Shown one piece after another: positions 1,218-63,247 of a DNA stretch of 64,000 nucleotides. The stretch lies in the NCBI GenBank assembly GCA_038087875.1, contig CM075991.1:10480001-10544000 (forward strand). The letters are read 5' to 3'. The translations under genes and the position numbers were made by a program. A model generated the notes under the pieces. It searched no databases, was not told the DNA's origin, and saw only the letters and a list, made by a program, of their open reading frames with translations. The stretch's first letter is position 1. Each line of letters begins with the position of its first letter. Source of the stretch: Malacoraja senta. Its lineage: Eukaryota.

Positions 1218-3696
<2,479 letters not shown>

Positions 3697-4502: not shown

Positions 4503-4779
4503 TTTAGTCTAGTTTAGCATCGAGATACAGGCCCTTCGGCCCGCCGAGTCCGTGCCGACCAGCGATCCCCACACACAAGCACTATCCTACACACACTAGG
4601 GACAATTTACATTTATACCGAGCCAAGTGTGGGAGGAAACCGAAGATCTCGGAGAAAACCCACGCGGGTCACGGGGAGAAGGTACAAACTCCGTACAGAC
4701 AGCGGCCGTCGTCAGGATGGAACCCGTGTCTCGGCGCTGCAAGCGCTGTGAGGCAGCAACTCTACCGCTGCCCCACCGT
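4503..4779 (-). mobile_element. tRNA-derived V-SINE (HE1-like)
   Basis: Reverse complement of the full-length copy at 46955-47262 (A/B boxes, V-core ctgtacggagtttgtac, LINE-type tail). Confidence 0.88.
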
Positions 4780-4924
4780 GTTGCCTCAAGATCCGTCTGC
4801 ATTTCGGCCACATGCTTGTGATCTTTGGTCACCCGGTACGGAGGTGGGGAGGGGGAGGGAGTCGAGTGCGGCGTGGATGCGGATGATAATGTTGTAATCT
4901 GATGATTGATGTTTGCAAACTGCA

Positions 4925-5536: not shown

Positions 5537-6951
5537 CTGCAATCTGCAATCTGTAATATGTAATCTACAATCTGTAATCTGCAATCTGTAATCTACAATC
5601 TGTATTCTGTAATCTACAATCTGTAATCTGCAATCTACAATCTGTAATCTGCAATCTACAATCTGTAATCTGTAATCTGTAATCTACAATCTACAATCTG
5701 TAATCTGCAATCTGTAATCTGTAATCTGTAATCTGTAATCTGTAATCTACAATCTACAATCTGTAATCTACAATCTGTAATCTGCAATCTACAATCTGTA
5801 ATCTGTAATCTACAATCTGTAATCTGTAATCTGCAATCTGTAATCTACAATCTACAATCTGCAATCTACAATCTGTAATCTACAATCTGTAATCTGTAAT
5901 CTACAATCTGTAATCTACAATCTGCAATCTGTAATCTACAATCTACAATCTGCAATCTACAATCTGTAATCTACAATCTACAATCTGTAATCTACAATCT
6001 ACAATCTGCAATCTACAATCTGTAATCTACAATCTACAATCTGTAATCTACAATCTACAATCTGCAATCTACAATCTGTAATCTACAATCTGTAATCTGT
6101 AATCTACAATCTGTAATCTACAATCTGCAATCTGTAATCTACAATCTACAATCTGCAATCTACAATCTGTAATCTACAATCTACAATCTGTAATCTACAA
6201 TCTACAATCTGCAATCTACAATCTGTAATCTACAATCTACAATCTGTAATCTACAATCTGTAATCTGTAATCTACAATCTGTATCTGTAATCTACAATCT
6301 GTAATCTACAATCTACAATCTGCAATCTACAATCTGTAATCTGTAATCTACAATCTGTAATCTACAATCTACAATCTGCAATCTACAATCTGTAATCTGT
6401 ATCTACAATCTGTAATCTGCAATCTACAATCTGTAATCTACAATCTACAATCTGTAATCTACAATCTACAATCTGTAATCTACAATCTGTAATCTACAAT
6501 CTGTAATCTACAATCTACAATCTGTAATCTGTAATCTACAATCTGTAATCCGTAATCTACAATCTACAATCTACAATCTACAATCTACAATCTACAATCT
6601 GTAATCTAAAATCTACAATCTGTAATCTACAATCTGTAATCTACAATCTGTAATCTGTAATCTACAATCTGTAATCTACAATCTGTAATCTACAATCTGT
6701 AATCTACAATCTGCAATCTACAATCTACAATCTGTAATCTACAATCTGTAATCTACAATCTGCAATCTACAATCATACAATCTGTAATCTACAATCTGTA
6801 ATCTACAATCTGTAATCTGTAATCTACAATCTGTAATCTACAATCTGTAATCTACAATCTACAATCTACAATCTGTAATCTACATCTGTAATCTACAATC
6901 TGTAATTTGTAATCTACAATCTACAATCTGTAATCTGTAATCTGTAATCTG
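5537..6951 (+). repeat. 7-bp minisatellite AATCT(GT/AC/GC), ~200 units, embedded in an old CR1 fragment (~5375-7195)
   Basis: Units aatctgt, aatctac and aatctgc visible; flanks read ttacacaacgtgtggctgc[array]ggaa, i.e. the CR1 FTQRV..WN region. Confidence 0.95.
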
Positions 6952-7273
6952 GAAATTTGCATCTGCAATCATCTGGAATCATCTGGAATCAGGAAACATC
7001 TGGAATCTGGAGCTCTTATGGAAATGAGTTCCATTGTGGCCTTCAACAGGAATTGGAGAAATATATAGTGAGGAAAAAAAACTTTCAAGGCTGCAGAGAC
7101 TGGGCTGGGGATCTGGAGGTAGAGAGAGTTGCTCTGGCTGAGGGCTAGCATGGACACAATGGCCAAGCGGCCTCCGTCCGCGCCGTAACCGCGCTGTGAT
7201 TCAGTCTGAAGAAGGGGGTCTCGACTGGAGACGTCACCCATCCCTTCTCTCCAGAGACGCTGCCTGTCCCGCT

Positions 7274-9310: not shown

Positions 9311-9555
9311 ATAGACAATAGACAATAGACAATAGGTGCAGGAGTAGGCCATTCGGCCCTTCGAGCCAGCACCGCCATTCAATGTGATTATGGCTGATCG
9401 TCCCCAATCAGTACCCCGTTCCTGCCTTCTCCCCATATCCCCTGACCCCGCTATTTTTAAGAGCCCTATCTAGCTCTCTCTTGAAAGCATCCAGAGAACC
9501 TGCCTCCACCGCCCTCTGAGGCAGAGAATTCCACAGACTCACCACTCTCTGTGAG
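9311..9555 (-). mobile_element. CR1 LINE 3' fragment with (TTGTCTA)n tail
   Basis: atagacaatagacaatagacaataggtgcaggagtaggccattcggccc.. similar to copies at 42821 and 57618. Confidence 0.9.
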
Positions 9556-10113
9556 ATTCCACAGACTCACCACTCTCTGTGAGATTCCACAGACTCACCA
9601 CTCTCTGTGAGATTCCACAGACTCACCACTCTCTGTGAGATTCCACAGACTCACCACTCTCCGTGAGATTCCACAGACTCACCACTCTCCGTGAGATTCC
9701 ACAGACTCACCACTCTCTGTGAGATTCCACAGACTCGCCACTCTCTGTAAGATTCCACAGACTCACCACTCTCTGTGAGATTCCACAGACTCACCACTCT
9801 CCGTGAGATTCCACAGACTCACCACTCTCTGTGAGATTCCACAGACTCACCACTCTCTGTGAGATTCCACAGACTCACCACTCTCTGTGAGATTCCACAG
9901 GCTCACCACTCTCCGTGAGATTCCACAGACTCGCCACTCTCCGTGAGATTCCACAGACTCACCACTCTCTGTGAGATTCCACAGACTCACCACTCTCCGT
10001 GAGATTCCACAGACTCACCACTCTCTGTGAGATTCCACAGACTCACCACTCTCTGTGAGATTCCACAGACTCACCACTCTCTGTGAGATTCCACAGACTC
10101 ACCACTCTCTGTG
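9525..10113 (+). repeat. 28-bp minisatellite (gagattccacagactcaccactctctgt), ~21 copies, derived from CR1 sequence
   Basis: Period 28 (accactctct at 9541 and 9569); unit matches the single-copy CR1 segment at ~43036-43066. Confidence 0.95.
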
Positions 10114-10624
10114 AAGAAGGGTCTCGACCCGAAACCTCACCTATGCCTTTCCTCCACAGACGCTGCCTGTCCCGCTGAGTTACTCCAGCATTTTTGTATC
10201 TGTCTTGGGTTTAAACCAGCATCTGCAGTTCCTTCCTACACTGTTAATCGCCATTGATATCTCTCTCAAGCGGGACATACCACTAGCCCATGGGGCTCCA
10301 TGTTGAACTCAAGCAGTCAGGGTCTGAGTGAGTAACCCTCTTTTCTCCCCCCATCCCCACCATAATTAATTTAAAGCTTTTTTAATTTAAATTAATGGGA
10401 ATGAAATGTGCTCCAATTTATTTCGGGAACCAGTTCATTTTTTTACGTCTCTGGTAAAAAGGCAAATAATTTAAAAATCAATGAAGTAAGGAGACAATAA
10501 TTGCCTAATCAATAAATTAGCAGAAAGGATGATTACAGAATACTGAGGATAGGAACACAGCAATAACTCACTTTGACATCAGCATGCAACATCAGTTAAA
10601 GTGTAGAGATGGATTCTCCATTTT

Positions 10625-12737: not shown

Positions 12738-14366
12738 CGGGTGAGGCAGGGTCTCTGAAGAGAAGGAATGGGCGACGTTTCAGGTCGAGAAGTCTGAAGA
12801 AGGGTCTCGACCCGAAATGTCGCCCATTCCTTCTCTCCAGAGATGCTGCCTCACCCGCTGAGTTACTCCAGCATTTTGTGTCGACCTGCAATGGATAAAG
12901 ATGCATATTTTCAGGATGATGTGTAGGAAGGAACTGCAGATGCTGGGTTACACCGAAGATAGGCACAAAATGCTGGAGTAACTCAGCGGGACAGGCAGCA
13001 TTTCTGGAGAGAAGGAATGGGTGACGTTTCCGGTCGGGACTGAAGAAGGGTCTCGATGCTGCCTAGCCCACTGAGTTCCTCCAGCACTTTGCATTTTGTT
13101 CAATATTCCAGCACCTGCAGTCTCTTGTGTCTCCAAACAAAAACATTATAGAAACGTACAAAATTCTTATGGGGTTGGACAGGCTAGATGCAGGAAGATT
13201 GTTCCCGATGTTGGGGAAGTCCAGGACAAGGGGTCACAGCTTAAGGATAAGGGGGAAATCCTTTAAGACCGAGATGAGGAAAAACTTTTTCACACAGAGA
13301 GTGGTGAATCTCTGGAACTCTCTGCCACAGAGGGTAGTTGACGCCAGTTCATTGGCTATATTTAAGAGGGAGTTAGATGTGGCCCTTGTGGCTAAAGGGA
13401 TCAGGGGGTATGGAGAGAAGGCAGGTACGGGATACTGAGTTGGATGATCAGCCATGATCATATTGAATGGCGGTGCAGGCTCGAAGGGCCGAATGGCCTA
13501 CTCCTGCACCTATTTTCTATGTATCTATGTATCTATGTTTTTAACAACCCTTCTTCGGGTCTCGACCTGAAACGTCACCCATTCCTTCTCTCCAGAGATG
13601 CTGCCTGTCCCGCTGAGTTACTCCAGCATTTTGTGTCTATCTTAGGTGTAAACCAGCATCTGCAGTTCCTTCCTGCACACCATCCTGAAAGTATACATCT
13701 TTATCCTTTGCAGAGTAGCTAACCAGCTCTGCACATGACACGGAATTAAAATGAGCAACATATCATAATGCAGTTGATTAAAAAAGGATTGAGTGTGATT
13801 GTCCCAATTTTGAAAGCAATTAAGTTATTAATGGTAGTTAACAAAAGATCCTTTTGAGAGGATTGAACAGACGCTTTTGAAATAGTGGAGGATTTAAACA
13901 GTTTCTTTTGATACCACAAAAAGCAATTAGTTCTAATGATTGGTTGTTAAAAACACAACAATGTTTTTGTTTGGAGACAAGAGGCTGCAGATGCTGGAAT
14001 ATTGAACGAGATACAAAGTGCTGGAGGAACTCAGTGGGCGAGGTAGCATTGAGACTCTTCTTCAGACCTGACCCGAAACGTCACCCATTCCTTCTCTCCA
14101 GAGATGCTGCCCGTCCCGCTGAGTTACTCCAGCAATTTGTGCCTATCTTCGGTGTAAACCAGCATCTGCAGTTCCTTCCTACACATCATCCTGAAAGTAT
14201 ACATCTTTATCCTTTGCAGAGTAGACACAAAATGCTGGAGTAACTCAGCGGGTGGAGGCAGCATCTCTGGAGAGAAGGAATGGGTGACGTTTCGGGTCGA
14301 GACCCATATTCAGACTTCTCGATGTGAAACGCCCATTCCTTCTCTTCAGAGATGCTGCCTCACCCG
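12738..14366. repeat. Local inverted duplication (12738-13147 vs 13960-14366) built of Penelope-like termini plus short unique linkers
   Basis: Reverse complement of 12738-13147 aligns by eye to 13960-14366 including the linker catcatcctgaaa..tttatcc.ttgcag. Confidence 0.85.
13144..13538 (+). mobile_element. Young CR1 LINE 3' fragment
   Basis: IETYKILMGLDRLDAGRLFPMLGKSRTRGHSLRIRG..KAGTGY*; near-identical to copies at 37606, 41348 and 52277. Confidence 0.93.
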
Positions 14367-18739: not shown

Positions 18740-19140
18740 ATAAAGCCAATTAACCTACAAACCTGCACGTCGTTGGAGTGTGGAGGGAAACCGAAGATCT
18801 CGGGAAAACCCACGCAGATCACGGACAGAACGTACAAACTCCATACAGACAGCACCCGTAGTCGGGATCGAACCCGGGTCTCTGGCGCTGCATTTTGCTG
18901 TAAGGCAGCAACTCTACCGCTGCGCCACCGTGACTGCCCAATTGTTGCCGTGTTTAATAGCCTGATGGCTGTAGGGGAGAAGCTGTTCCTGGAACCTGGA
19001 CGTTACAGTTTTCAGGCTCCTGTACCTTCTTCCCGATGGCAGGGGTGAAATGAATGTGTGGCTAGGATGGTCTTTGATGATGGTGGCTGCCTTTTTGAGG
19101 CAGCGACTTCGATAGATCCCTTCGATGGTGGGGAGTATGT
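18740..19140 (-). mobile_element. V-SINE 5' part (18740-18935) adjoining a Rex1-like fragment (18940-19140)
   Basis: cgtacaaactccatacagacagcacccgtagtcgggatcgaacccggg; then gtgtttaatagcctgatggctgt..ctgtaccttcttcccgatgg. Confidence 0.78.
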
Positions 19141-19289
19141 CAGAGTCTCATGTAATTGCAGGACAATATCGCTCGGAAGAATATCATCGTGGAAGATAGT
19201 TTCATACACATTATGTGAATTAAATCTATCCAAGGAGGGAATTAGTCAGTCCTCTGCTTCTCTATAATATTGTGTGACTAGTGGCAGTT

Positions 19290-19605
19290 TAATTTAATTT
19301 AGTTCAGTTTAGTGATACAGCCGAGAAACAGGCCCTTCGGCCCACCGAGTCCACACCGACCTTGGATCACCCCTCATCACTCATTGTATGTTATCCCACT
19401 TACTCATCCACTCCCTACACACTAGAGGGCCGATTAACCTACGAACTTGCATGGCTTTAGGACGTGGGAGGAAACCAGAGCACCCGGAGGAAACCCACAC
19501 GGTCACAGGCAAACTCCGCACAGACAGCACCCAAGGTCAGGATCGAACCTGGGTCTCTGGCGCAGTGAGGCAGCGGCTCTACCTGCTGCACCACTGTGCC
19601 GCCCC
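19290..19605 (-). mobile_element. V-SINE (HE1-like, older copy)
   Basis: gatacag..aaacaggcccttcggcccaccgag..caaactccgcacagacagcac..ggatcgaacctggg. Confidence 0.82.
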
Positions 19606-19698
19606 CAGTTAGTGGTGCGGGTGGTTGCCACCTTGTAGAGTTAGTGGATCAAAGGCCCAGGCATGAGATTTGGCTCTGGACACTGCGGTGCCTTAGAA

Positions 19699-20356
19699 CC
19701 ATGATGAAATCTCCAAGTCAGCGAGTCATACAGCTTGGAAACAGGCCCTTCGGCCCAACTTGCCCACAACGAACAACATGTCCCATCTACATTAGTCCCA
19801 CCTTCCTGAGTTTGGCCCATATCCCCTAAACCCGATCCTATCCATGTACCTGTCTAATTGTTTCTTAAACGTTGCAATAGTCCCTGCCTCAACTCCGGCA
19901 GCTCGTTCCATACACCCATCACCCTCTGTGTGGAAAAAGTTACCCCTCAGGTTCCTATTAAATCTTTTCCCCCCCTCACCTTAAAACCCATGTCCTCTGC
20001 TTCTCGATTCCCAGGTTGAAAGTGTTTTTACGTCCCGCAAAGCACACGCCAGCCGCCTGCCAAATGAAGTTATGCTTGGCTCAGAGTTTCCATAAATGGC
20101 GGATTAAAATGACAAATTTATGCCTCTTTGTCCACGATCCACTTAATCATTGTTTCAGCACATTGTTTCCAAATGTGAAAAAATCTTATCTAAATATAAT
20201 TACGTGTTGAATGCGCCAAAAGTTTTAACGCAAGTGTGCGGGGAATAACACACATTTGGATGTGGTGAAAATGAAAGCGAATACCTTGGAAGGATTACAA
20301 GGAGGAATATTTAATTGAGGGAAATGTCTTGGTAATTTAAACCCATTGAAATTCTG
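19699..20356 (+). repeat. Left copy of ~658-bp direct duplication flanking the L1 element (contains a CR1 fragment at ~19725-20015)
   Basis: ccatgatgaaatctccaagtcagcgag...acccattgaaattctg recurs at 23191-23846. Confidence 0.95.
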
Positions 20357-23190
20357 AAGGAACAAGAGGAATTGGGTGCACAAATTTCAATTAAGGAATT
20401 AGAAGATACAATAAACTCACTAAAGAATGGAAAAACACCAGGCCCTGATGGATTTACTAATGAATTTTATATAAGCTTTTATGATAAATAATACCAAGAT
20501 TAAAAAAAATGTACCAATATGCTTTTAAAAAACAAATACTACTGATACATTAGCGGAATCAACGATTACACTAATACCTAAGAAAGACAAAGATTTAGAA
20601 GAACCGGGTTCATATAGAGCTATAGCATTGTTAAACACAGATCAAAAAATATTAGCGAAAACATTAGCTAGAAGATTAAGTAAATACATTAGTAAATTAA
20701 TAAACCCAGATCAGACGGGGTTTATCCCTAAGAGATACTCATCTAACAATATGAGACGTTTACTCAACATAATGCACTCACACAAATCTGAAGATCATTT
20801 TATCAATTATTTCGCTGGATGCTGAAAAAGCATTTGACCAAGTAGAATGGAATTTCGAGGATAAGTATTTATAGTAAGTATTCAAGCTGGGAGGTTTTTT
20901 ATCTAGATAAGAGTTACTATATAACAAACCTACAGCTAGAATACTTACTAATAACATATTATCCTCGAAATTCCAACTATCAAGGGGAAATAGACAAGGA
21001 TGCTCATTATCACCACAGCTGTTTGCTCTCATTATTGAACCGCTAGCAGAAAAAATTAGAATACACCCTGATATCCATGGATATAATACTAAAGATTCAT
21101 ATAATAAAATATCTTTATACGCGGATGATATATTACTGTACATTACAAAACCTCAAATCACTATACCAAATATATTAAATTTAATTGAAGACTTTGGATC
21201 TTTTTCTGGATATAGAAATAAATTGGAATAAAAGTGAAATTATGTCAATAAAACTGAAAGATTCAACACATCTTTTAAATTCCCTTATAAAATAGCTACA
21301 GAAAAATTTAAATACTTGGGAATCGAAATTACCAGATCATATCAAGGTATGTCTAAGGCAAATTTTGATCCCCTACTTAATAAATTAAACACACTAATTA
21401 AATTCTGGAAAACGCTCCCGATGTCTTTAATAGGCCGAATAAATGCAATAAAAATGATCTTTCTACCACGAATTTTTATACCTATTTCAATCGATTCCTA
21501 TATACTTACCAATGAAGTTTAAAAAAAAACTCGACTCAGATATCACTAATTTTATATGGGACTATAAATCACATAGAATACAAAAAACTCATCTGAATAA
21601 ACCTAAAGTATTAGGGGGTTTAGCACTACCTAATTTTATGTATTATTATTGGTCAGTAAATATTAAAAATATGATTCAACTGATGGATAACTCCGCCCAG
21701 CAAGTGGACTGGATTGTAATGGAGAAAGAGGATTGCTCCTCTAGAAACATTGGAGCGATCCTCCTCTCTCCAATGAAACTGAATAATATAAATATAATAA
21801 GAACCCAATTTTCATTTATAGTACAATCCGAATTTGGAAACAAATAAAACAAAATTTAAAATTAAGAAATTTTCCACTTTTATTACCCATAGTTAATAAC
21901 CCTTCGTTTAATCCCTCTATTATAGATAAAGCTTATACACAATGGGATAGATTAGGAATTAAAACGCTCGGTGACTTGTATGAAACTGGAAAATTACTTT
22001 CATTCCAACAATTACAAATAAAATATAAACTCGGAAATAATCAATATTTTAAATATTTTCAAATATGCGACTATTTGAAAAAATATACAAAAGATCATTA
22101 TAATAACCCAGTAGATGTATTGGATGAGGCAATGCAGATAAAAGCTGAATCAGCAAACTTAATATAATATTTGTATAATATTATCTTAAATGTACAAATA
22201 CCATCTACGGAGGGTATCAGAAGAGACTGGGAACAAGAGTTAGCTATTAAAATTTCAAAGGAAAGTTGGAATGAACACTTATTAAACGTGCATAAATGTT
22301 CGATTAATGTAAGACACACTTTAATACAATTTAAAATTTTACATAGATTATATTATTCCAAAACTAAAATTCATAAAATTTTCCCAAATTGTATCATCAA
22401 TTTGTGATAAATGTCAATCCCAAGAAGCTACTATAGCGCACTCATTTGTTTTCTGTACAAAAATTCAAACATTTTGGAATGAAATTTTCGAAATCTTTAC
22501 AAAATTATTTAAAATAAGACTGATACCCAAAGCAGAATGGATTATCTTCGGAATAACGGAAGATGGTCCAGAACTAAATGTGTTTCAAAAGAAACTAATA
22601 GACTATGGGTTAATAACTGGAAAAAAGCTAATTCTAAAATTTTGGAAGAAGGCTCCAATACCAACTATAAACATGTGGATTTCAAATATGTTCGAAACAT
22701 TACACCTAGAAGAGATAAGACTCCTCCTGGCAGGTAAACCAGATCACTTCCACCTGACGTGGTCCTGCATTTATAGAATTATTACAAATATAGGGTGCAA
22801 AGGTACCTTAAAAAAAAAATTGAGGTCAGGTAAGGGGGGATGCTAGTTGAAGAGTTGGTATGTCCCATTTACGTAATGCTCATAAAAAATATTTGTTTCT
22901 CTCTTTTTCCTCTTTCTCTTTCTCCTTCTTTTCTAGGGTCTATTTCTTAACTCTTTTTCTTTTGTTTTTAATTTTGTTCTTATAGGGTCTTCGTCCTTTT
23001 TTGTTGTCACATTTTCTACACTCTCACGTTTTCCTTCACTTTCTTCTTTCTTTCAATCTTATCTTTTCCTTTTACTAGTGTAAAAAACAAATGGAGTACA
23101 TTAATTGTAAGAAGACATAAGTGACGAGTACTAATGTATGTGGTTGTAATGTAATGTACTTCTAATAAATAAAAAATTAAAAAAAAAAAA
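20357..23190 (+). mobile_element. 5'-truncated L1-clade LINE: frameshifted ORF2 (RT and C-terminal Cys/His motif), T-rich 3' UTR, poly(A)
   Basis: ISIKELEDTINSLKNGKTPGPDGFTNEFY at ~20387; YRAIALLNTDQKILAK; RGNRQGCSLSP; SLYADD (YADD at 21118-21129); CDKC-x7-H-x4-C at ~22403-22455; aataaa 23164-23169 then A-tail to 23190; markedly AT-rich. Confidence 0.95.
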
Positions 23191-23846
23191 CCATGATGAA
23201 ATCTCCAAGTCAGCGAGTCATACAGCTTGGAAACAGCCCTTCGGCCCAACTTGCCCACAACGAACAACATGTCCCATCTACATTAGTCCCACCTTCCTGA
23301 GTTTGGCCCATATCCCCTAAACCCGATCCTATCCATGTACCTGTCTAATTGTTTCTTAAATGTTTCGATAGTCCCTGCCTCAACTCCGGCAGCTCGTTCC
23401 ATACACCCACCACCCTCTGTGTGAAAAAGTTACCCCTCAGGTTCCTAATAAATCTTTTCCCCCCTCACCTTAAAAACCCATGTCCTCTGCTTCTCGATTC
23501 CCAGGTTGAAAGTGTTTTTACCTTCCCGCAAAGCACACGCCAGCCGCCTGCCAAATGAAGTTATGCTTGGCTCAGAGTTTCCATAAATGGCGGATTAAAA
23601 TGACAAATTTATGGCTCTTTGTCCACGATCCACTTAATCATTGTTTCAGCACATTGTTTTAAAATGTGAAAAAATCTTATCTAAATATAATTACGTTTGA
23701 AATGCGCCAAAAGTTTTAACGCAAGTGTGCGGGGAATAACACACATTTGGATGTGGTGAAAATGAAAGCGAATACCTTGGAAGGATTACAAGGAGAATTT
23801 TTAATTGAGGGAAATGTCTTGGTAATTTAAACCCATTGGAATTCTG
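23191..23846 (+). repeat. Right copy of the ~658-bp direct duplication
   Basis: Starts immediately after the L1 poly(A); roughly 97% identical to 19699-20356 by manual comparison. Confidence 0.95.
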
Positions 23847-23987
23847 TAATCTGAAATGGATGGGAAGTTACTTGATGCACTGGGATTCTGTAGTGTGCGA
23901 GAGGATTGTCAAAGATGTGTTCCCTTTTACAACCCAGCGGTACGAATATTGATTTCTCTAATGATATAGAGATTAAAAAATGCCGTA

Positions 23988-24360
23988 AGGGGCTGTCCCA
24001 CTTGGGCGACCTAATCCGCGGGTTCTGGCGAGTTTGCCCTCGACTCATACTTGCAGCATCTTCGACACGAGGTCCTACGAAGTCTTTGTAAGGGCCTGTC
24101 CCACTTTCACGACCTAATTCGCGACCTCTGCCGAGTTTGCCCTTGACTCAGACTCGCAGCATGGTCGTCACGAGGTCGTAGGAGCTCGTAGTAGGTCGTG
24201 ATGCTAGTCGTAGGTACTCGTGGCATCAAGTAGGTCGGGGCGTTTTTCTAACCTGATGAAAAATGCCCACGAGAGTAGTCCCCCGCGTACTCGAGGCCTC
24301 AACTAGGTCGCAGTGTATTTTTCAACGTGTTGAATGCCCGCGAGTAAAAAAAGGTCGCCA
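23988..24360 (+). mobile_element. Nested PIF/Harbinger-like MITEs (outer from 23988, inner family-A copy from 24091), right ends truncated
   Basis: Two left TIRs aggggctgtcccactt and agggcctgtcccactt; inner body matches 39879-40105. Confidence 0.75.
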
Positions 24361-25365: not shown

Positions 25366-25565
25366 NNNNNNNNNNNNNNNNNNNNNNNNNNNNNNNNNNN
25401 NNNNNNNNNNNNNNNNNNNNNNNNNNNNNNNNNNNNNNNNNNNNNNNNNNNNNNNNNNNNNNNNNNNNNNNNNNNNNNNNNNNNNNNNNNNNNNNNNNNN
25501 NNNNNNNNNNNNNNNNNNNNNNNNNNNNNNNNNNNNNNNNNNNNNNNNNNNNNNNNNNNNNNNNN
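25366..25565. other. Assembly gap (200 N)
   Basis: Run of n; true gap size and contiguity across it are unknown. Confidence 1.
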
Positions 25566-25659
25566 TATTTGTCGGCGCTCGGGCAGCAGCTCCTGACGAT
25601 GGCAGCACCGTCCCTCAGCAGCCGGCTAAATATAACCACGCGTTGTATCCTGCGCCCAC

Positions 25660-27170
25660 GCACTCACTCACACACACACACACACACACAGACACACACA
25701 GAGAAACACACACACACACACACGTACACAGAGACACACACACACACACACACACAGAAACACACAGAGAGACACACAGAAACACAGACACAGAGAAACA
25801 CACACACACACAGACACACACACACACGTACACAGAGACACACACACACAGACACACACAGATAAACATACACACACACACACGTACACACACACACACA
25901 GAGAAACACACACACACACATACGTACACAGACACACACAGACACAGAAACACAGACACAGAGAAACACACACACACACACACACGTACACAGAGACACA
26001 CAGAGAACACACACACACATACGTACACAGAGACACACACAGCCACAGACACACAGAAACACACAGAGAGACACACAGAAACACACTCACAGAGAAACAC
26101 ACACACACACACGCACACAGACACAGACACACGCAGAGAAACACACACACACACACAGACACAGACACACACAGTGAAACACACACACACACACAAGTAC
26201 ACAGACACACACACACACACACACACAGAGAAACACACACAGACACACACAGAGAAACACACACACACACACGTACACAGAGACACACACAAACAGACAG
26301 ACACACACAGAGAAACACACACAAACAGACAGACACACACAGAGAAGCACACACACACACACACACACACATACACAGAGACACACACACATACACAGAG
26401 ACACACACAGACACACAGACACAGAGAGACACACAGAAACACACACACAGAGACGCACACACAGACACACACACACACACACACATGTACACAGAGACAC
26501 ACACAAACAGACAGACACACACAGATATACATAAACACACAGACACAGGGAGACACACACAGACACACACACACACACAGGCACACAGAAACACACATAG
26601 AGAGACACACAGAAACACACACACAGACACACACACAGAAACACGCATAGAAACACGCACAGAAACACAAACACGCACAGAAACACGCACACACAGAAAC
26701 ACACACGCACACACAGAAACACACACACGCACACACAGAAACACACACACGCACACACAGAAACACACACACACACCCACAGAAACACACAGACACACAC
26801 ACAGAAACACACACGCAGACACACATACAGAGACACAGACACAGAAACACAAACACAGACAGAGAGAGAGAGGGACTTACAGAGACACATACAGAGAGAC
26901 ACACACACGCAGAGACACACACGCACACACCAAGAGACACAGACACACCGATACATGCACACAAACAGACATGTATGGACACAGATGCACACAGCCACAT
27001 GGACGGACAGACACACACATCACACAGGGACAAATATCAACAAATGCAGAAATACACAGATACATACAAACCACACACAGGCACCAAGACACTAACAAAT
27101 ACCCACCCACACAGACACAACACCCATACACAAGGACGCACACACAGATACATGAACACAGATGGACACC
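25660..27170. repeat. Degenerate (CA)n / CACAGA compound microsatellite
   Basis: Directly visible. Confidence 0.96.
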
Positions 27171-27179
27171 AAGATAAGA

Positions 27180-27459
27180 TAGAGAGAGAGAGAGGTGAGG
27201 GAGAGATAAGAGAAAAAAGAGAGAGGGGGGTTTGAGGGGAGATATCTCACCTCACCCCTCTCTCTCTCTCTCTCTCTCTTATCTTTCTCTCACTCACTCT
27301 CACCTTCACTCTCTCTCTCTCTCTCTCTCTTTATCTTCTCTCACTCTCTCACCTTCACTCCTCACTCTCTCTCTCTCTCTCTCTCTTTCTCTCACTCACT
27401 CTCACCTTCACTCTCTCTCTCTCTTTTTAATCTTTCTCTCGCTCACTCTCACCTTCACA

Positions 27460-27505
<46 letters not shown>

Positions 27506-27595
27506 ATCTTTCTCTCACTCACTCTCACCTTCACTCTCTCTCTCACTCTCTCTCTCTCTCTCTCACTCACTCACCTTCACTCTTTCTCTCACTCA

Positions 27596-27645
<50 letters not shown>

Positions 27646-27845
27646 ATCTTTCTCTCACTCTCTCTCACTCTATCTTTCTCTCACTCACTCTCACTCTCAC
27701 ACTCTCTCTCACTCCATCTTTCTCTCACACTCTCTCTCACTCTCACACTCTCTCTCACTCCATCTTTCTCTCACACTCTCTCTCACTCTCACACTCTCTC
27801 TCACTCCATCTTTCTCTCACACTCTCTCTCACTCTCTCACTCTCA
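27180..27845. repeat. Short (GA)-rich tract followed by ~590-bp (CT)n/CTCA polypyrimidine array
   Basis: Directly visible. Confidence 0.96.
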
Positions 27846-37605: not shown

Positions 37606-38140
37606 GATAGAAACATAGAAACATAGAAAATAGGTGCAGGAGTAGGCCATTCGGCCCTTCGAGCCTGCACCGCCATTCAATATGATCATGGCTGATCATC
37701 CAACTCAGTATCCTGTACCTGCCTTCTCTCCATACCCCCTGATCCCTTTAGCCACAAGGGCCACATCTAACTCCCTCTTAAATATAGCCAATGAACTGGC
37801 CTCAACTACCTTCTGTGGCAGAGAATTCCACAGATTCACCACTCTCTGTGTGAAAAATGATTTTCTCATCTCGGTCCTAAAAGACTTTCCCCTTATCCTT
37901 AAACTGTGACCCCTTGTTCTGGACTTCCCCAACATCAGGAACAATCTTCCTGCATCTAGCCTGTCCAACCCCTTAAGAATCTTGTAAGTTTCTATAAGAC
38001 CCCCCCTCAATCTTCTAAATTCTAGCGAGTACAAGCCGAGTCTATCCAGTCTTTCTTCATATGAAAGTCCTGCCATCCCAGGAATCAGTCTGGTGAACCT
38101 TCTCTGTACTCCCTCTATGGCAAGAATGTCTTTCCTCAGA
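37606..38140 (-). mobile_element. Young CR1 3' fragment inserted into an older CR1 fragment (~37400-38340)
   Basis: ORF 37705-38181(-) LRKDILAIEGVQRRFTRLIPGMAGLSYEERLDRLGLYSLEFRR; host gaattcca|..caccaccctctgg is split. Confidence 0.92.
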
Positions 38141-38451
38141 TACACCACCCTCTGGCTAAAAAAATTGCTCCTCGTCTCCATTCTAAAGGTATGTCATTTT
38201 ATTCTGAGGGTGTGCCCCTCTGGTCTTGGGCTCTCCCACGAATGGGAACATTCTCCCCAAATCCACTCTTTTCAATATTCAGTAGACTTCAATGAGATCA
38301 CCCCTCATCCCTCTAAACACCAGCAAGTGCAAGCTCGGAGTCCTCCATCACACTGGCAATATTTTAAATTTAGTTTAGAGAAATAGTGTGGAAACACTGA
38401 GTCTGCGTTGACCAGCGATCTCAGAGTCTCTGAGAGTCTCTGAGACTCTAA

Positions 38452-38683: not shown

Positions 38684-39878
38684 TGAGTCTCTGGGTCACG
38701 TGACAGGCCTGTCGTCCCAACTCGCCTACACCGACCAACATGCCCCATCTACACCAGTCCAACCTGCCTGCGTTTGGCCCATATCCCTCTAAACCTGTCC
38801 TATCCACGTACCAGTCCAAATGCTTTTTAAAAGTTTTAAAACTTTTCCCTTCTCTCTCGCTCTCGAGAGCAAGCCATACTTGAGGGTGGCTGCCCACTCA
38901 CTCCAGCAATCTAGTTCAGTTCAGTTTTATTTGTCATATGTAGGGTCAACGGTACAATGAAATGTGTTAGACAAGACAACGGGTCACCTCTAACACAAGA
39001 TATTACAAGGATAAAATGAAGGTACACAAATGCTGGAGAAACTCAGCGGGTGCAGCAGCATCTATGGAGCGAAGGAAATAGGCATTGGTAGGGATAAGTA
39101 AGTAAGTTTATTGGCCAAATATTCACATACAAGGAATTTGCCTTGGTGCTCCGCCCACAAGTAACAACATGCCATACAGTGACAGTTACGAATGACTCGG
39201 AAAAAGACAGTAATAATTAAAATAATCAACATATATGATGTGTTTATGAGTTCAGAAGTCTGGTGGCATGATGATAACAACTGTTCTACTCACTATCCAC
39301 AATCTACAAGCTTGCCTGGTGGCTTGAAGATCTGACTCAAACCTAATTGACCTCTTGCTCCCATTTACCAGGAGCTGCCCAATCTCCGCGTTTATCTAGA
39401 GCTGGCTGGCAGGGACATAATCATCTCTGGGAGTATGGTTGGTGTTCCAGACACTCTGTGCTTGTGCCTCCATTGATAGGAACAAGCAGTTAATAACATG
39501 TACTCATAACAATCACGCAATTCTTTAAAGACAGCTGCCTGTTTCCTGTCTTTAGTTCTAGGTTGCAAATAACTCTCAAATAACAGAATGCAGTGCAACT
39601 TTATTTCAGCCAGAGCTATAAACCCCGCTCCTTATTTGTGAGTGTCCCATTGGCACAGAACGAGATACCGAGGTTTAAGATTACTGGAAAACAAAGCTTC
39701 CCCCCCACCTCACACGTTTGCTACAAGCCTTTATTAATGTTGTTTCATCAGCTACAAAGTTACTTGATCATCTGTTCCCAAATTTCTACGTTGTGCATTC
39801 TTGTCACGGAGAGAACCAGCAAACTCCGCACTGACAGCACCCGTAGTCAGGATCGAAGCGGAGTCTCTGGCGCTGTAA

Positions 39879-40105
39879 ACGGCCTGTCCCACTTTCACGA
39901 CCTAATTCACGACCTCTGCCGAGTTTGCCCTTGACTCGTACTCGCAGCGTGGTCGTCACGAGGTCGTAGGTAGGTCGTAGCAGGCCGTGATGCTAGTCGT
40001 GGGTACTCGTGGCATCAAGTAGGTCGGGGCGTTTTTTCAACATGGTGAAAAATGTCCACGAGTAAAAAAAGTCGTGCATTAGGTCGTGAAAGTGGGACGG
40101 GCCCT
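39879..40105. mobile_element. PIF/Harbinger-like MITE family A inserted in a V-SINE fragment (~39803-40133)
   Basis: TIRs acggcctgtcccactttcacgacctaat / attaggtcgtgaaagtgggacgggccct; perfect TAA duplication (39876-39878, 40106-40108). Confidence 0.92.
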
Positions 40106-41155: not shown

Positions 41156-41695
41156 TAAATGCTGGAGTAAACTCAGTGGGTCAGGCAGCAACTCTGGAGA
41201 AAGGGAATAGGTGACGTTTCAGGTCGAGACACTTCAGTCTGAAGAAGGGTCTCGACCCGACACGTCACCTGTTCCTTCTCTCCAGAGATGCTGCCTGTCC
41301 CGCTGAGTTACTCCAGCATTTTGTGTCTATCTTCGGTTGAAACCAACATAGATACATAGATACATAGAAAATAGGTGCAGGAGTAGGCCATTCGGCCCTT
41401 CGAGCCTGCACCGCCATTCAATATGATCATGGCTGATCATCCAACTCAGTATCCCGTACCTGCCTTCTCTCTATACCCCCTGATCCCCTTAGCCACAAGG
41501 GCCACATCTAACTCCCTCTTAAATATAGCCAATGAACTGGCCTCAACTACCCTCTGTGGCAGAGAGTTCCAGAGATTCACCACTCTCTGTGTGAAAAAGT
41601 TTTTTCTCATCTCGATCTTAAAGGATTTCCCCCTTATCCTTAAGCTGTGACCCCTTGTCCTGGACTTCCCCAACATCGGGAACAATCTGCAGTTA
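41156..41695. mobile_element. Penelope-like fold-back (41156-41348) split near its end by a young CR1 3' fragment (41348-41685, -)
   Basis: Host aaaccaaca|..|tctgcagtt; insert carries a (tctatgta)n tail and LFPMLGKSRTRGHSLRIRG. Confidence 0.87.
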
Positions 41696-43240: not shown

Positions 43241-43464
43241 TTGTAATCATGTATTGTCTTTCCGCTGACTGGTCACCATGCAACAAAAGCTTTTCACTGT
43301 ACCTCGGTCGCTAATCCTGACAATAAACTAAACTGAACTGCCTCTGATTTCAGAATTAATGGACTCCTGAATCTTTAATGAGAAAAAAAATGTTGAATGT
43401 TTCTTTAGACTTAGAATCAGGAGTTCATTGGATGTTTTCAAGAGAGAGTTGGATTTAGCTCTTA

Positions 43465-43648
43465 AGGGCCTGTCCCACTTTCACGACCTCTGCCGAGTTT
43501 GCCCTTGACTCATACTCGCAGCATGGTCATAGGAGGTGATAGGTAGGTCGTAGCAGGCCGTGATGGTAGTCGTAGGTACTCGTGGCATGATGAAAAATGT
43601 CCACGAGTAAAAAAAGGTCGTGAATTAGGTCGTGAAAGTGGGACAGGG
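43465..43648. mobile_element. MITE family A inserted at TTA in a CR1 fragment
   Basis: gctcTTA agggcctgtcccactttcacgacc..gtcgtgaaagtgggacag; host CR1 resumes ggctaaaggaatcaag. Confidence 0.85.
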
Positions 43649-52194: not shown

Positions 52195-52276
52195 GTAAGT
52201 ACTTCACTCTGTGAATAATGCATGTTATCTTAGCCACAGAATGTTTGTACTAACGGCACCAGGTTGTAACGTGATT

Positions 52277-53029
52277 AGATACATAGAAACATAGAAAATA
52301 GGTGCAGGAGTAGGCCATTCGGCCCTTCGAGCCTGCACCGCCATTCAATATGATCATGGCTGATCATCCAACTCAGTATCCCGTACCTGCCTTCTCTCCA
52401 TACCCCCTGATCCCTTTAGCCACAAGGGCCACATCTAACTCCCTCTTAAATATAGCCAATGAACTGGCCTCAACTACCCTCTGTGGCAGAGAGTTCTAGA
52501 GATTCACCACTCTCTGTGTGAAAAAGTTTTTCCTCATCTCGGTCTTAAAGGATTTCCCCCTTATCCTTAAGCTGTGACCCCTTGTCCTGGACTTCCCCAA
52601 CATCGGGAACAATCTTCCTGCATCTAGCCTGTCCAACCCCATAAGAATTTTGTACGTTTCTATAAGATCCCCTCTCAATCTCCTAAATTCCAGCGAGTAT
52701 AAGCCAAGTCTATCCAGTCTTTCTTCATATGAAAGTCCTGACATCCCAGGAATCAGTCTGGTGAACCTTCTCTGCACTCCCTCTATGGCTATAATGTCCT
52801 TCCTCAGATTTGGAGACCAAAACTGTACGCAATACTCCAGGTGTGGTCTCACCAAGACCCTGTACAACTGCAGTAGGACCTCCCTGCTCCTATACTCAAA
52901 TCCTTTTGCTATGAAAGCCAACATACCATTCGCTTTCTTCACTGCCTGCTGCACCTGCATGCCTACTTTCAATGACTGGTGTACCATGACACCCAGGTCT
53001 CGCTGCACCTCCCCATTTCCTAATCGGCC
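52277..53029 (-). mobile_element. Young CR1 LINE 3' portion (ORF2 C-terminus, ~750 bp)
   Basis: ORF 52496-53158(-) QRDLGVMVHQSLKVGMQVQQAVKKANGMLAFI..VRPHLEYCVQFWSP..FFTQRVVNL; (tctatgt.)n tail. Confidence 0.95.
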
Positions 53030-62610: not shown

Positions 62611-62809
62611 TTCACAACCTAATTCATGACCTTTTTTTACTCGTGGACATTTTTCATCGTGCTAGAAAAACGCCCCGACCTACTTGACGCCACGAGTACC
62701 TACGACTAGCTTCACGGCCTGCTACGACCTACCTACGACCTCGTTACGACCATGCTGCGAGTATGAGAAGGGCAAACTCGGCAGAGGTCGTGAAAGTGGG
62801 ACAGGCCCT
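62611..62809 (-). mobile_element. MITE family A, reverse orientation, one TIR lost
   Basis: Reverse complement of 39879-40105 body; ends gtcgtgaaagtgggacaggccct. Confidence 0.85.
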
Positions 62810-63247
62810 TGATGCAGCAGTTGACTGTACAAATAGAATAAGTTGAAACACCTGCATATTTCATCCGCACTGGTTTATATTGCTGAGCATTTTTCCTGAG
62901 GGTGTAAGCCCCAATTACCTGGAGATCTACCGGTTGTACAGACTGACATAAATTACCTGCTTATCATGTCTACCTGCAATGGCCACTGAAGTTTTACAGA
63001 AGTATTTTGAGGAGTGATTAGCGAGTGGAGAGATAACATGAATTGCAACAGCTCCCTCTCAGAGCAGAATGGATAATATGACAAAAATGCTACACACCTT
63101 TCAATCCTGAAACTGCGGCTTTGCGATGAAGTGTTTTACAGGGACCCACATATTTTTCTTTGAAAATGGCTGTTCATCGCCTTGCGTGACGGACGTATCC
63201 CAATACACCAAACAATTAGCATGTGCCGGTGAAGGCTGCATTACGAG

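Follow-up and report, generated by a model that had tools for sequence, protein, structure and literature searches.

A 5'-truncated L1 between two 660-bp direct repeats in Malacoraja senta: a candidate large target-site duplication

Large target-site duplications (TSDs) at insertions of long interspersed elements (LINEs) are already known and are not a new phenomenon. For human L1, TSDs of more than 100 bp were found in up to 10% of the events in HeLa cells, and in cells deficient in nucleotide excision repair the median L1 TSD is 1,495 bp; single cases of 503-614 bp are described as well (PMC5223499). A distant-nick model has been proposed for large L1 TSDs (PMC5223499, Servant et al. 2017; Gilbert 2002/2005 cited there). 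The zebrafish element ZfL2-2 gave a 1,228-bp TSD in 1 of 25 insertions in wild-type chicken DT40 cells (PMC2666801, Suzuki et al. 2009), where the position of second-strand cleavage is modelled after Gilbert 2002, as cited there. In Chlamydomonas, host duplications with a median of 900 bp beside the LINE Dualen-4b_cRei are a property of the lineage (PMC9977147, Lopez-Cortegano et al. 2023), and the same paper cites a TSD of 126 bp for rotifer R9. In cancer genomes and L1-induced clones, tandem duplications of 1-10 kb with an L1 at the junction are regarded as large TSDs and linked to break-induced replication (10.1101/2024.12.14.628481). Here we describe a locus of this appearance in a 64,000-nt stretch of the Malacoraja senta assembly GCA_038087875.1 (contig CM075991.1, positions 10,480,001 to 10,544,000; hereafter the window, with positions counted from its first letter), in which a 5'-truncated L1 lies between two copies of a 660-bp direct repeat.

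Genome surveys often cap TSD length, one being limited to 5-30 bp with a peak at 14-16 bp (PMC2912911), so that copies with large TSDs are under-counted; in human long-read data the median TSD is 21 bp (PMC12350158). In our search of the open-access literature, the titles and abstract openings of the papers listed mentioned no further large L1 TSD, which is a weak negative. The bioRxiv preprint 10.1101/522623 was considered as a precedent and rejected as irrelevant, its 'long TSDs' being 9-18 bp long.

Self-BLAST of the window aligned the two repeat copies (Table 1) with 97.0% identity over 662 columns, comprising 14 mismatches and 6 gaps (E = 0, far beyond chance). Pairwise alignment of the copies over 663 columns resulted in 19 differences, i.e. 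11 substitutions (5 transitions, 6 transversions) and 8 one-base insertions or deletions (indels), the latter located mostly at short homopolymers, and alignment of the flanks showed that the likeness breaks off abruptly on either side. The copies are 2,832 nt apart (20357-23188), giving a repeat period of 3,492 nt, and no N occurs between 20356 and 23189; the only gap of the window lies 1,520 nt beyond copy 2. In the assembly both copies adjoin the L1 within 2-3 nt at each end, in agreement with the initial annotation, which had described them as abutting the truncated L1 start and the poly(A) end. The recurrence of 19699-20356 at 23191-23846 with about 97% identity, reported there as well, was also recovered; these starts are 2 nt short of 19697 and 23189, two A's at the start of the duplication being common to the L1 poly(A) tail, which renders the left edge ambiguous. 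Where about 18 differences including substitutions had been counted by hand, part of the 3% divergence turns out to be consensus error rather than mutation (see below). The duplication is confirmed as real in the assembled sequence, the confirmation extending to the assembly and not to a single DNA molecule.

The insert consists of an L1 ORF2 remnant, followed by a 3' untranslated region (UTR) and an A-rich tail, with AATAAA and the A tail at 23164-23190. The remnant extends from about residue 460 of a 1,281-amino acid relative to its end, covering the reverse transcriptase (RT) domain and the C-terminal cysteine motif; residues 463-1275 of this relative (P0005) align collinearly over 20360-22798. 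The Pfam profile RVT_1 (E 1e-10) is above cut-off in 2 of 9 translated pieces, and the best relatives of solved structure are human L1 ORF2p with 74 bits, the next class reaching 22.5 bits. Among 143 candidates 30 are homologues, the closest (P0001) being 88% identical and the named ones coming from teleost fishes. The reading frame switches about eight times and contains a few stops. A C-x2-C-x8-H-x4-C motif is present in the last frame, with the zf-RVT profile staying below cut-off (E 0.005). The endonuclease domain, which full-length relatives carry as an APE-type domain (PF03372), and ORF1 have been removed from this copy by the 5' truncation. Judged by these matches the element is an L1-clade non-long terminal repeat (non-LTR) retrotransposon, an assignment that does not formally separate L1 from the sister group Tx1. 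No second copy of this L1 is present within the window.

At the left edge of copy 1 we found the endonuclease-like site TT/AGAA, and three TT/AAAA-like motifs occur in the 1,356 nt around this edge, TT/AAAA being preferred by the L1 endonuclease (PMC2912911). At the 5' join, an L1 contig of the sequencing run X1, the first 533 letters of which lie elsewhere, starts to match at 20354, and a second relative (P0027, protein) aligns from the codon at 20354. As both start at this position, the last three bases of the duplicated block are common to the L1, indicating a 3-nt microhomology at the join. Microhomology is typical of truncated L1 5' joins and is not expected of a blunt artefact. It is also treated for 5' junctions in PMC2912911. 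Alignment of the flanks revealed no separate short TSD at the L1 ends.

A genuine L1 insertion with a large TSD is in our view the best explanation of the locus, with a probability of roughly one half; this figure, like the weights given to the other readings in words, is a judgement and was not computed. We favour it because the copies abut the L1 gaplessly and the structure has a poly(A) tail, an endonuclease-like site and a microhomology. The sequence shows the geometry, the poly(A) tail, the L1 identity and the microhomology, while we infer the nick positions, the order of events and the presence of the whole structure on a single molecule as follows. The L1 endonuclease would nick the bottom strand at or beside TT/AGAA, and the freed 3' end would prime reverse transcription on the poly(A) tail (target-primed reverse transcription). 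Synthesis of the complementary DNA (cDNA) would halt after 2.8 kb, and the top strand would be opened about 660 nt downstream by a distant, probably host-made nick; alternatively, replication might have been restarted from the other break end. The cDNA end would then be joined through the 3-nt microhomology, fill-in would double the 660 bp, and the copies would later diverge or swap letters with empty alleles. Understood in this way, the structure is a one-off accident of a known kind and shows no sign of function.

Table 1. Features of the duplicated locus and its vicinity, in window coordinates
Feature	Coordinates	Strand	Basis
Candidate 5' TSD (repeat copy 1, 660 bp)	19697..20356	+	BLAST and pairwise alignment; X23 contig match over 19950-20348
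Candidate 3' TSD (repeat copy 2)	23189..23846	+	BLAST and pairwise alignment; X22 contig with copy-2 letters at 3 displayed sites
Endonuclease-like site TT/AGAA	19693..19698	+	At the left end of copy 1, offset by 2 nt from where the duplication begins to align
3-nt microhomology CTG	20354..20356	+	Last bases of the duplicated block, also present where the truncated L1 begins
5'-truncated, broken L1-clade ORF2	20357..22800	+	RVT_1 profile, human L1 ORF2p match, collinear relative
L1 3' UTR (T-rich), AATAAA at 23164-23169, A-rich tail	22801..23188	+	Sequence
Fold-back in the RT coding region	20848..20975	.	Stretch of about 60 nt supplanted by the 60 nt that come after it, inverted and imperfectly copied
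Older dispersed-repeat fragment in the block, 3' end of a LINE	19716..20012	-	Window matches and translated match
Low-copy half of the duplicated block	20013..20356	.	Copy 2 is the only other window match
200-N scaffold gap	25366..25565	.	Structure near contig end

Contigs of runs X22, X23, X24 and X1 (4 of the 24 runs listed with shared words, the other 20, with small shares, not counting as evidence) were compared with 19080-23190, comprising the left flank, copy 1 and the element. All runs are short-read contigs, which show presence and not absence, and contig depths were not taken as copy numbers. X22 and X23 are different samples of organism F and share 0.62 and 0.60 of the words, respectively. 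One 485-nt contig of X22 aligns with 20037-20356, with 5 other letters and 1 gap relative to copy 1, and disappears into a repeat on its left. It carries the copy-2 letters at all three displayed sites (20123, 20206, 20309) and leaves the block at exactly 20356, where the L1 starts, continuing with 164 letters off the compared stretch. If these represent the right flank they would end at 24010, 25 nt inside the repeat that starts at 23985, and since the contig would thus end in the next repeat of that flank, the junction between the copy and the right flank is probably real. In X23 one 400-nt contig covers 19950-20348 with no other letters and 1 gap, matching copy 1 at all seven substitution sites covered. 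It stops one base before the last difference between the copies (20349), as a fork that does not close would give. Over 20046-20321 these are the single contigs, with depths of 24.6 (X22) and 4.27 (X23), and neither X24 nor X1 provides cover.

Both types of letters are consequently real DNA in organism F, and as these single-nucleotide polymorphisms (SNPs) are split by sample, the two copies may be two alleles. The unmixed letters fit alleles better, it seems, although merging of contigs or exchange with empty alleles gives the same picture; the chance of finding them unmixed is 0.016 for six sites and 0.03-0.125 for three to five, values that overstate the case as neighbouring sites share reads. 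When contigs are built from short reads, bubbles are merged and branches that enter high-copy repeats are lost. Organism F has the L1 family in very high abundance, with a summed depth exceeding 250,000 versus about 25. In X22 the L1 letter is at odds with more than 80% of the family depth at 11 or more of the sites displayed, indicating that the age of the L1 is of the same order as the roughly 0.8% change per copy.

An exact scan of metagenome contigs for that end of the block which is low-copy gave 0 matches, no L1 relative with flanks was present among 328 candidate stretches of metagenome contigs, and the only relative among 52 candidates in viral contigs (L001, 35% match) was of no use; on that contig of the viral collection the weak, reverse-transcriptase-like match to the L1 piece lies at 4645-4827. 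Six chance open reading frames (ORFs) across the four junctions had no exact match (0/6), even at junctions that all models accept, and are uninformative.

The contigs also bear on the quality of the local sequence. At 20209 the contigs of X22 and X23 agree on a base that copy 1 does not have; copy 2, in turn, is short of two bases found in the X22 contig. As the contigs contradict them, at least 3 of the 8 indels are errors of the consensus, lying among SNPs that are real. Gaps relate to mismatches as 6:14 in the repeat pair and as 33:271 in the 17 repeat pairs taken from the window as controls (p = 0.022); this is the like-for-like comparison, an alternative with p = 0.0009 having been set aside as it mixes two aligners. 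With one aligner the ratios are 8:11 for the repeat pair versus 9:91 for 6 control pairs. In another part of the window a young repeat is free of indels over 390 nt, so the weakness is local.

Within the L1 the RT coding region contains a fold-back, in which 56 of 65 columns match the reverse complement (DNA fold z = -11.8). At 6 of the 8 places where window and family contigs differ the letter of the window is that of the inverted arm, and protein relatives read collinearly through the region. Either a real template switch was read badly or the fold-back is a further mark of an unreliable consensus. Positions 20872-20909 have no cover in X22 and X23, which was not used as proof because contigs drop variants. 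The left arm keeps family-like letters in places and looks mosaic.

Several observations weigh against a large TSD. The endonuclease-like site lies 2 nt off the aligned edge and its G is not found at the matching place before copy 2, so the fit is imperfect and suggestive only. Among the records listed, which leave out 584 joints, 2,384 loose ends and 200,678 pieces, no contig bridges 20356/20357 and none joins the tail back to 19697, the tail being skipped as repeat; this absence was not taken as proof. The X22 contig runs unbroken past the fork expected for the L1 branch. The SNP letters are unmixed in each sample (copy 1 in X23, copy 2 in X22), whereas divergence after the insertion should mix them, and the excess of indels between the copies together with the nearby contig end are marks of false duplications (PMC9516828). 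The giant TSD proposed in the initial annotation is partly supported: it fits the anatomy described above (abutting copies, poly(A), endonuclease-like site, microhomology), but the contigs lean in part towards a haplotype mis-join, which the annotation had itself named as a refutation. An ordinary L1 insertion around 19697 on just one haplotype of the animal could have led to a heterotype false duplication in the assembly: the contig would follow the empty haplotype through the 660 bp, jump in the middle of the L1 onto the filled haplotype and read the 660 bp again, whether because a read is chimeric, because a gap was filled or because a join close to the contig end is thin. Both edges would then abut the L1 automatically, as the '5' truncation' would be the jump point and a truncated 5' end is arbitrary. 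Known heterotype false duplications consist of adjacent near-identical copies with allele-like differences and an increased number of erroneous k-mers, near gaps (PMC9516828, Ko et al. 2022). Allele-like differences and a raised error rate are present here as well, since the SNP letters of each copy are found unmixed in a different sample and the indel excess, including at least three indels contradicted by contigs, points to a local error; moreover, the 200-N gap is 1.5 kb away, and such marks, including gapless joins, are described in the same paper. False duplications 'most often' have a gap between the copies, however, while here the copies are separated by a gapless L1 piece (PMC9516828). 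A random jump would also leave the 3-nt microhomology unexplained (rough chance about 6%, an estimate), an allelic divergence of about 1.5% in the low-copy half (5 letters in 320 nt) would be required in addition to a heterozygous L1 at this very site, and unmixed letters can likewise be produced by short-read contig building. On balance we consider such an artefact the main rival, though less likely than a genuine large TSD.

Allele-like copies would also result if the structure were real DNA formed between homologous chromosomes, the copies being different alleles from the outset and the insertion at the same time a crossover. Either the reverse-transcribed end on one homologue would have been joined to a break 660 bp along the other, or a fork on the empty homologue would have changed over, with the help of microhomology, to an L1 already present on the filled one. 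This would account jointly for the unmixed allele-like letters, the microhomology and the gapless geometry. Ends produced by L1 are known to become joined to other breaks, and break-induced replication has been invoked for small duplications (both 10.1101/2024.12.14.628481); the fold-back, if real, points to template switching at the locus. Yet the reads provide no junction evidence, the literature search yielded no germline case among the papers it covered, two rare events or one rare geometry would be required, and the local indel errors would remain unexplained, so that we regard an origin between homologues as unlikely. Most improbable of all is that the L1 landed precisely at the junction of an already existing tandem duplication, or that recombination of older duplicates created a pseudo-TSD, as discussed for HERV-K sites with repeats of 111-250 bp, for which this caveat is raised (PMC5488345). 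The L1 would have had to hit one exact base of a 1.3-kb tandem pair, its ends have no short TSD of their own, and the X22 contig appears to leave the block into other sequence and not into a second copy. An LTR element was rejected, as the repeats are made up of a host repeat fragment plus low-copy DNA and enclose a LINE with a poly(A) tail, and so was 3' transduction, as the block lies after the L1 tail and has no tail of its own.

The duplicated block is composed of an older repeat fragment and a low-copy half. The fragment, derived from a LINE that we take to be CR1-like, has nine other matches in the window (130-300 nt, 69-83%) and, when translated, resembles the other LINE ORF found there (E 4.5e-8). 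No Pfam cut-off was reached in 118 of 128 non-repeat ORFs (at least 55 amino acids) of the window, and no host gene appears to be affected or duplicated. A short way beyond copy 2 a 103-nt unit occurs twice, head to tail (23985-24177), as part of a dispersed repeat also found at 39878-40062, 43463-43647 and 62640-62810. The 200-N gap directly precedes a 1.5-kb CA-rich microsatellite (25657-27200), with a CT-rich one at 27258-27844. Elsewhere in the window, young copies of a second LINE family, presumably CR1-like, are located at 13146-13539, 37607-38141, 41345-41688 and 52276-52809 (mutually 94-99% identical, 0-2 indels); they served to gauge the local sequence quality. The repeat landscape of the window may resemble that of a cartilaginous fish. 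Long tandem arrays comprise a 2.4-kb GT-rich microsatellite (1245-3687), an array of a 7/14-nt unit of about 1.4 kb (5537-6970) and 21 copies of a 28-nt unit with 97% match (9528-10114). Unnamed dispersed pairs with 92-93% identity are 32466-32944/41911-42390 and 49057-49381/61907-62233.

If genuine, the large TSD would be a natural, inherited case, from a vertebrate outside the mammals, of something observed chiefly in tumours and cell lines. It would also bear on what breaks the second strand when a LINE inserts, a question that is still open. It is conceivable, along the lines of the lineage property suggested in the initial annotation, that this high-copy L1 family produces TSDs of hundreds of bases so frequently that small duplications regularly arise from it in the germ line of the animal. 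A single copy settles nothing, and the case would gain weight if many copies of the family were alike or if the copies came from different homologues. Should the inter-homologue origin be true, one event would have combined insertion, duplication and crossover; should the duplication be an artefact, it would usefully warn that the exact picture of a giant TSD can result from a haplotype jump within a heterozygous L1.

The closest counterparts of the locus are the L1 insertions in human cell lines, which share the 5' truncation, the poly(A) and a direct repeat of several hundred bp on both sides. Those insertions are new and sequence-verified and have identical copies, whereas the present L1 is aged and apparently inherited, comes from the assembly of a non-mammalian vertebrate and is flanked by diverged copies. 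ZfL2-2 is likewise a fish LINE with a TSD of the same order, but it belongs to the L2 clade and was observed in an engineered assay. The L1-associated duplications of cancer genomes have the L1 at the junction as well, and differ in being somatic, human and slightly longer. Dualen resembles the present case in having duplicated host sequence on either side of the LINE; it possesses two endonucleases, the proposed cause of its duplications, whereas the relatives of this L1 carry a single APE-type domain (PF03372).

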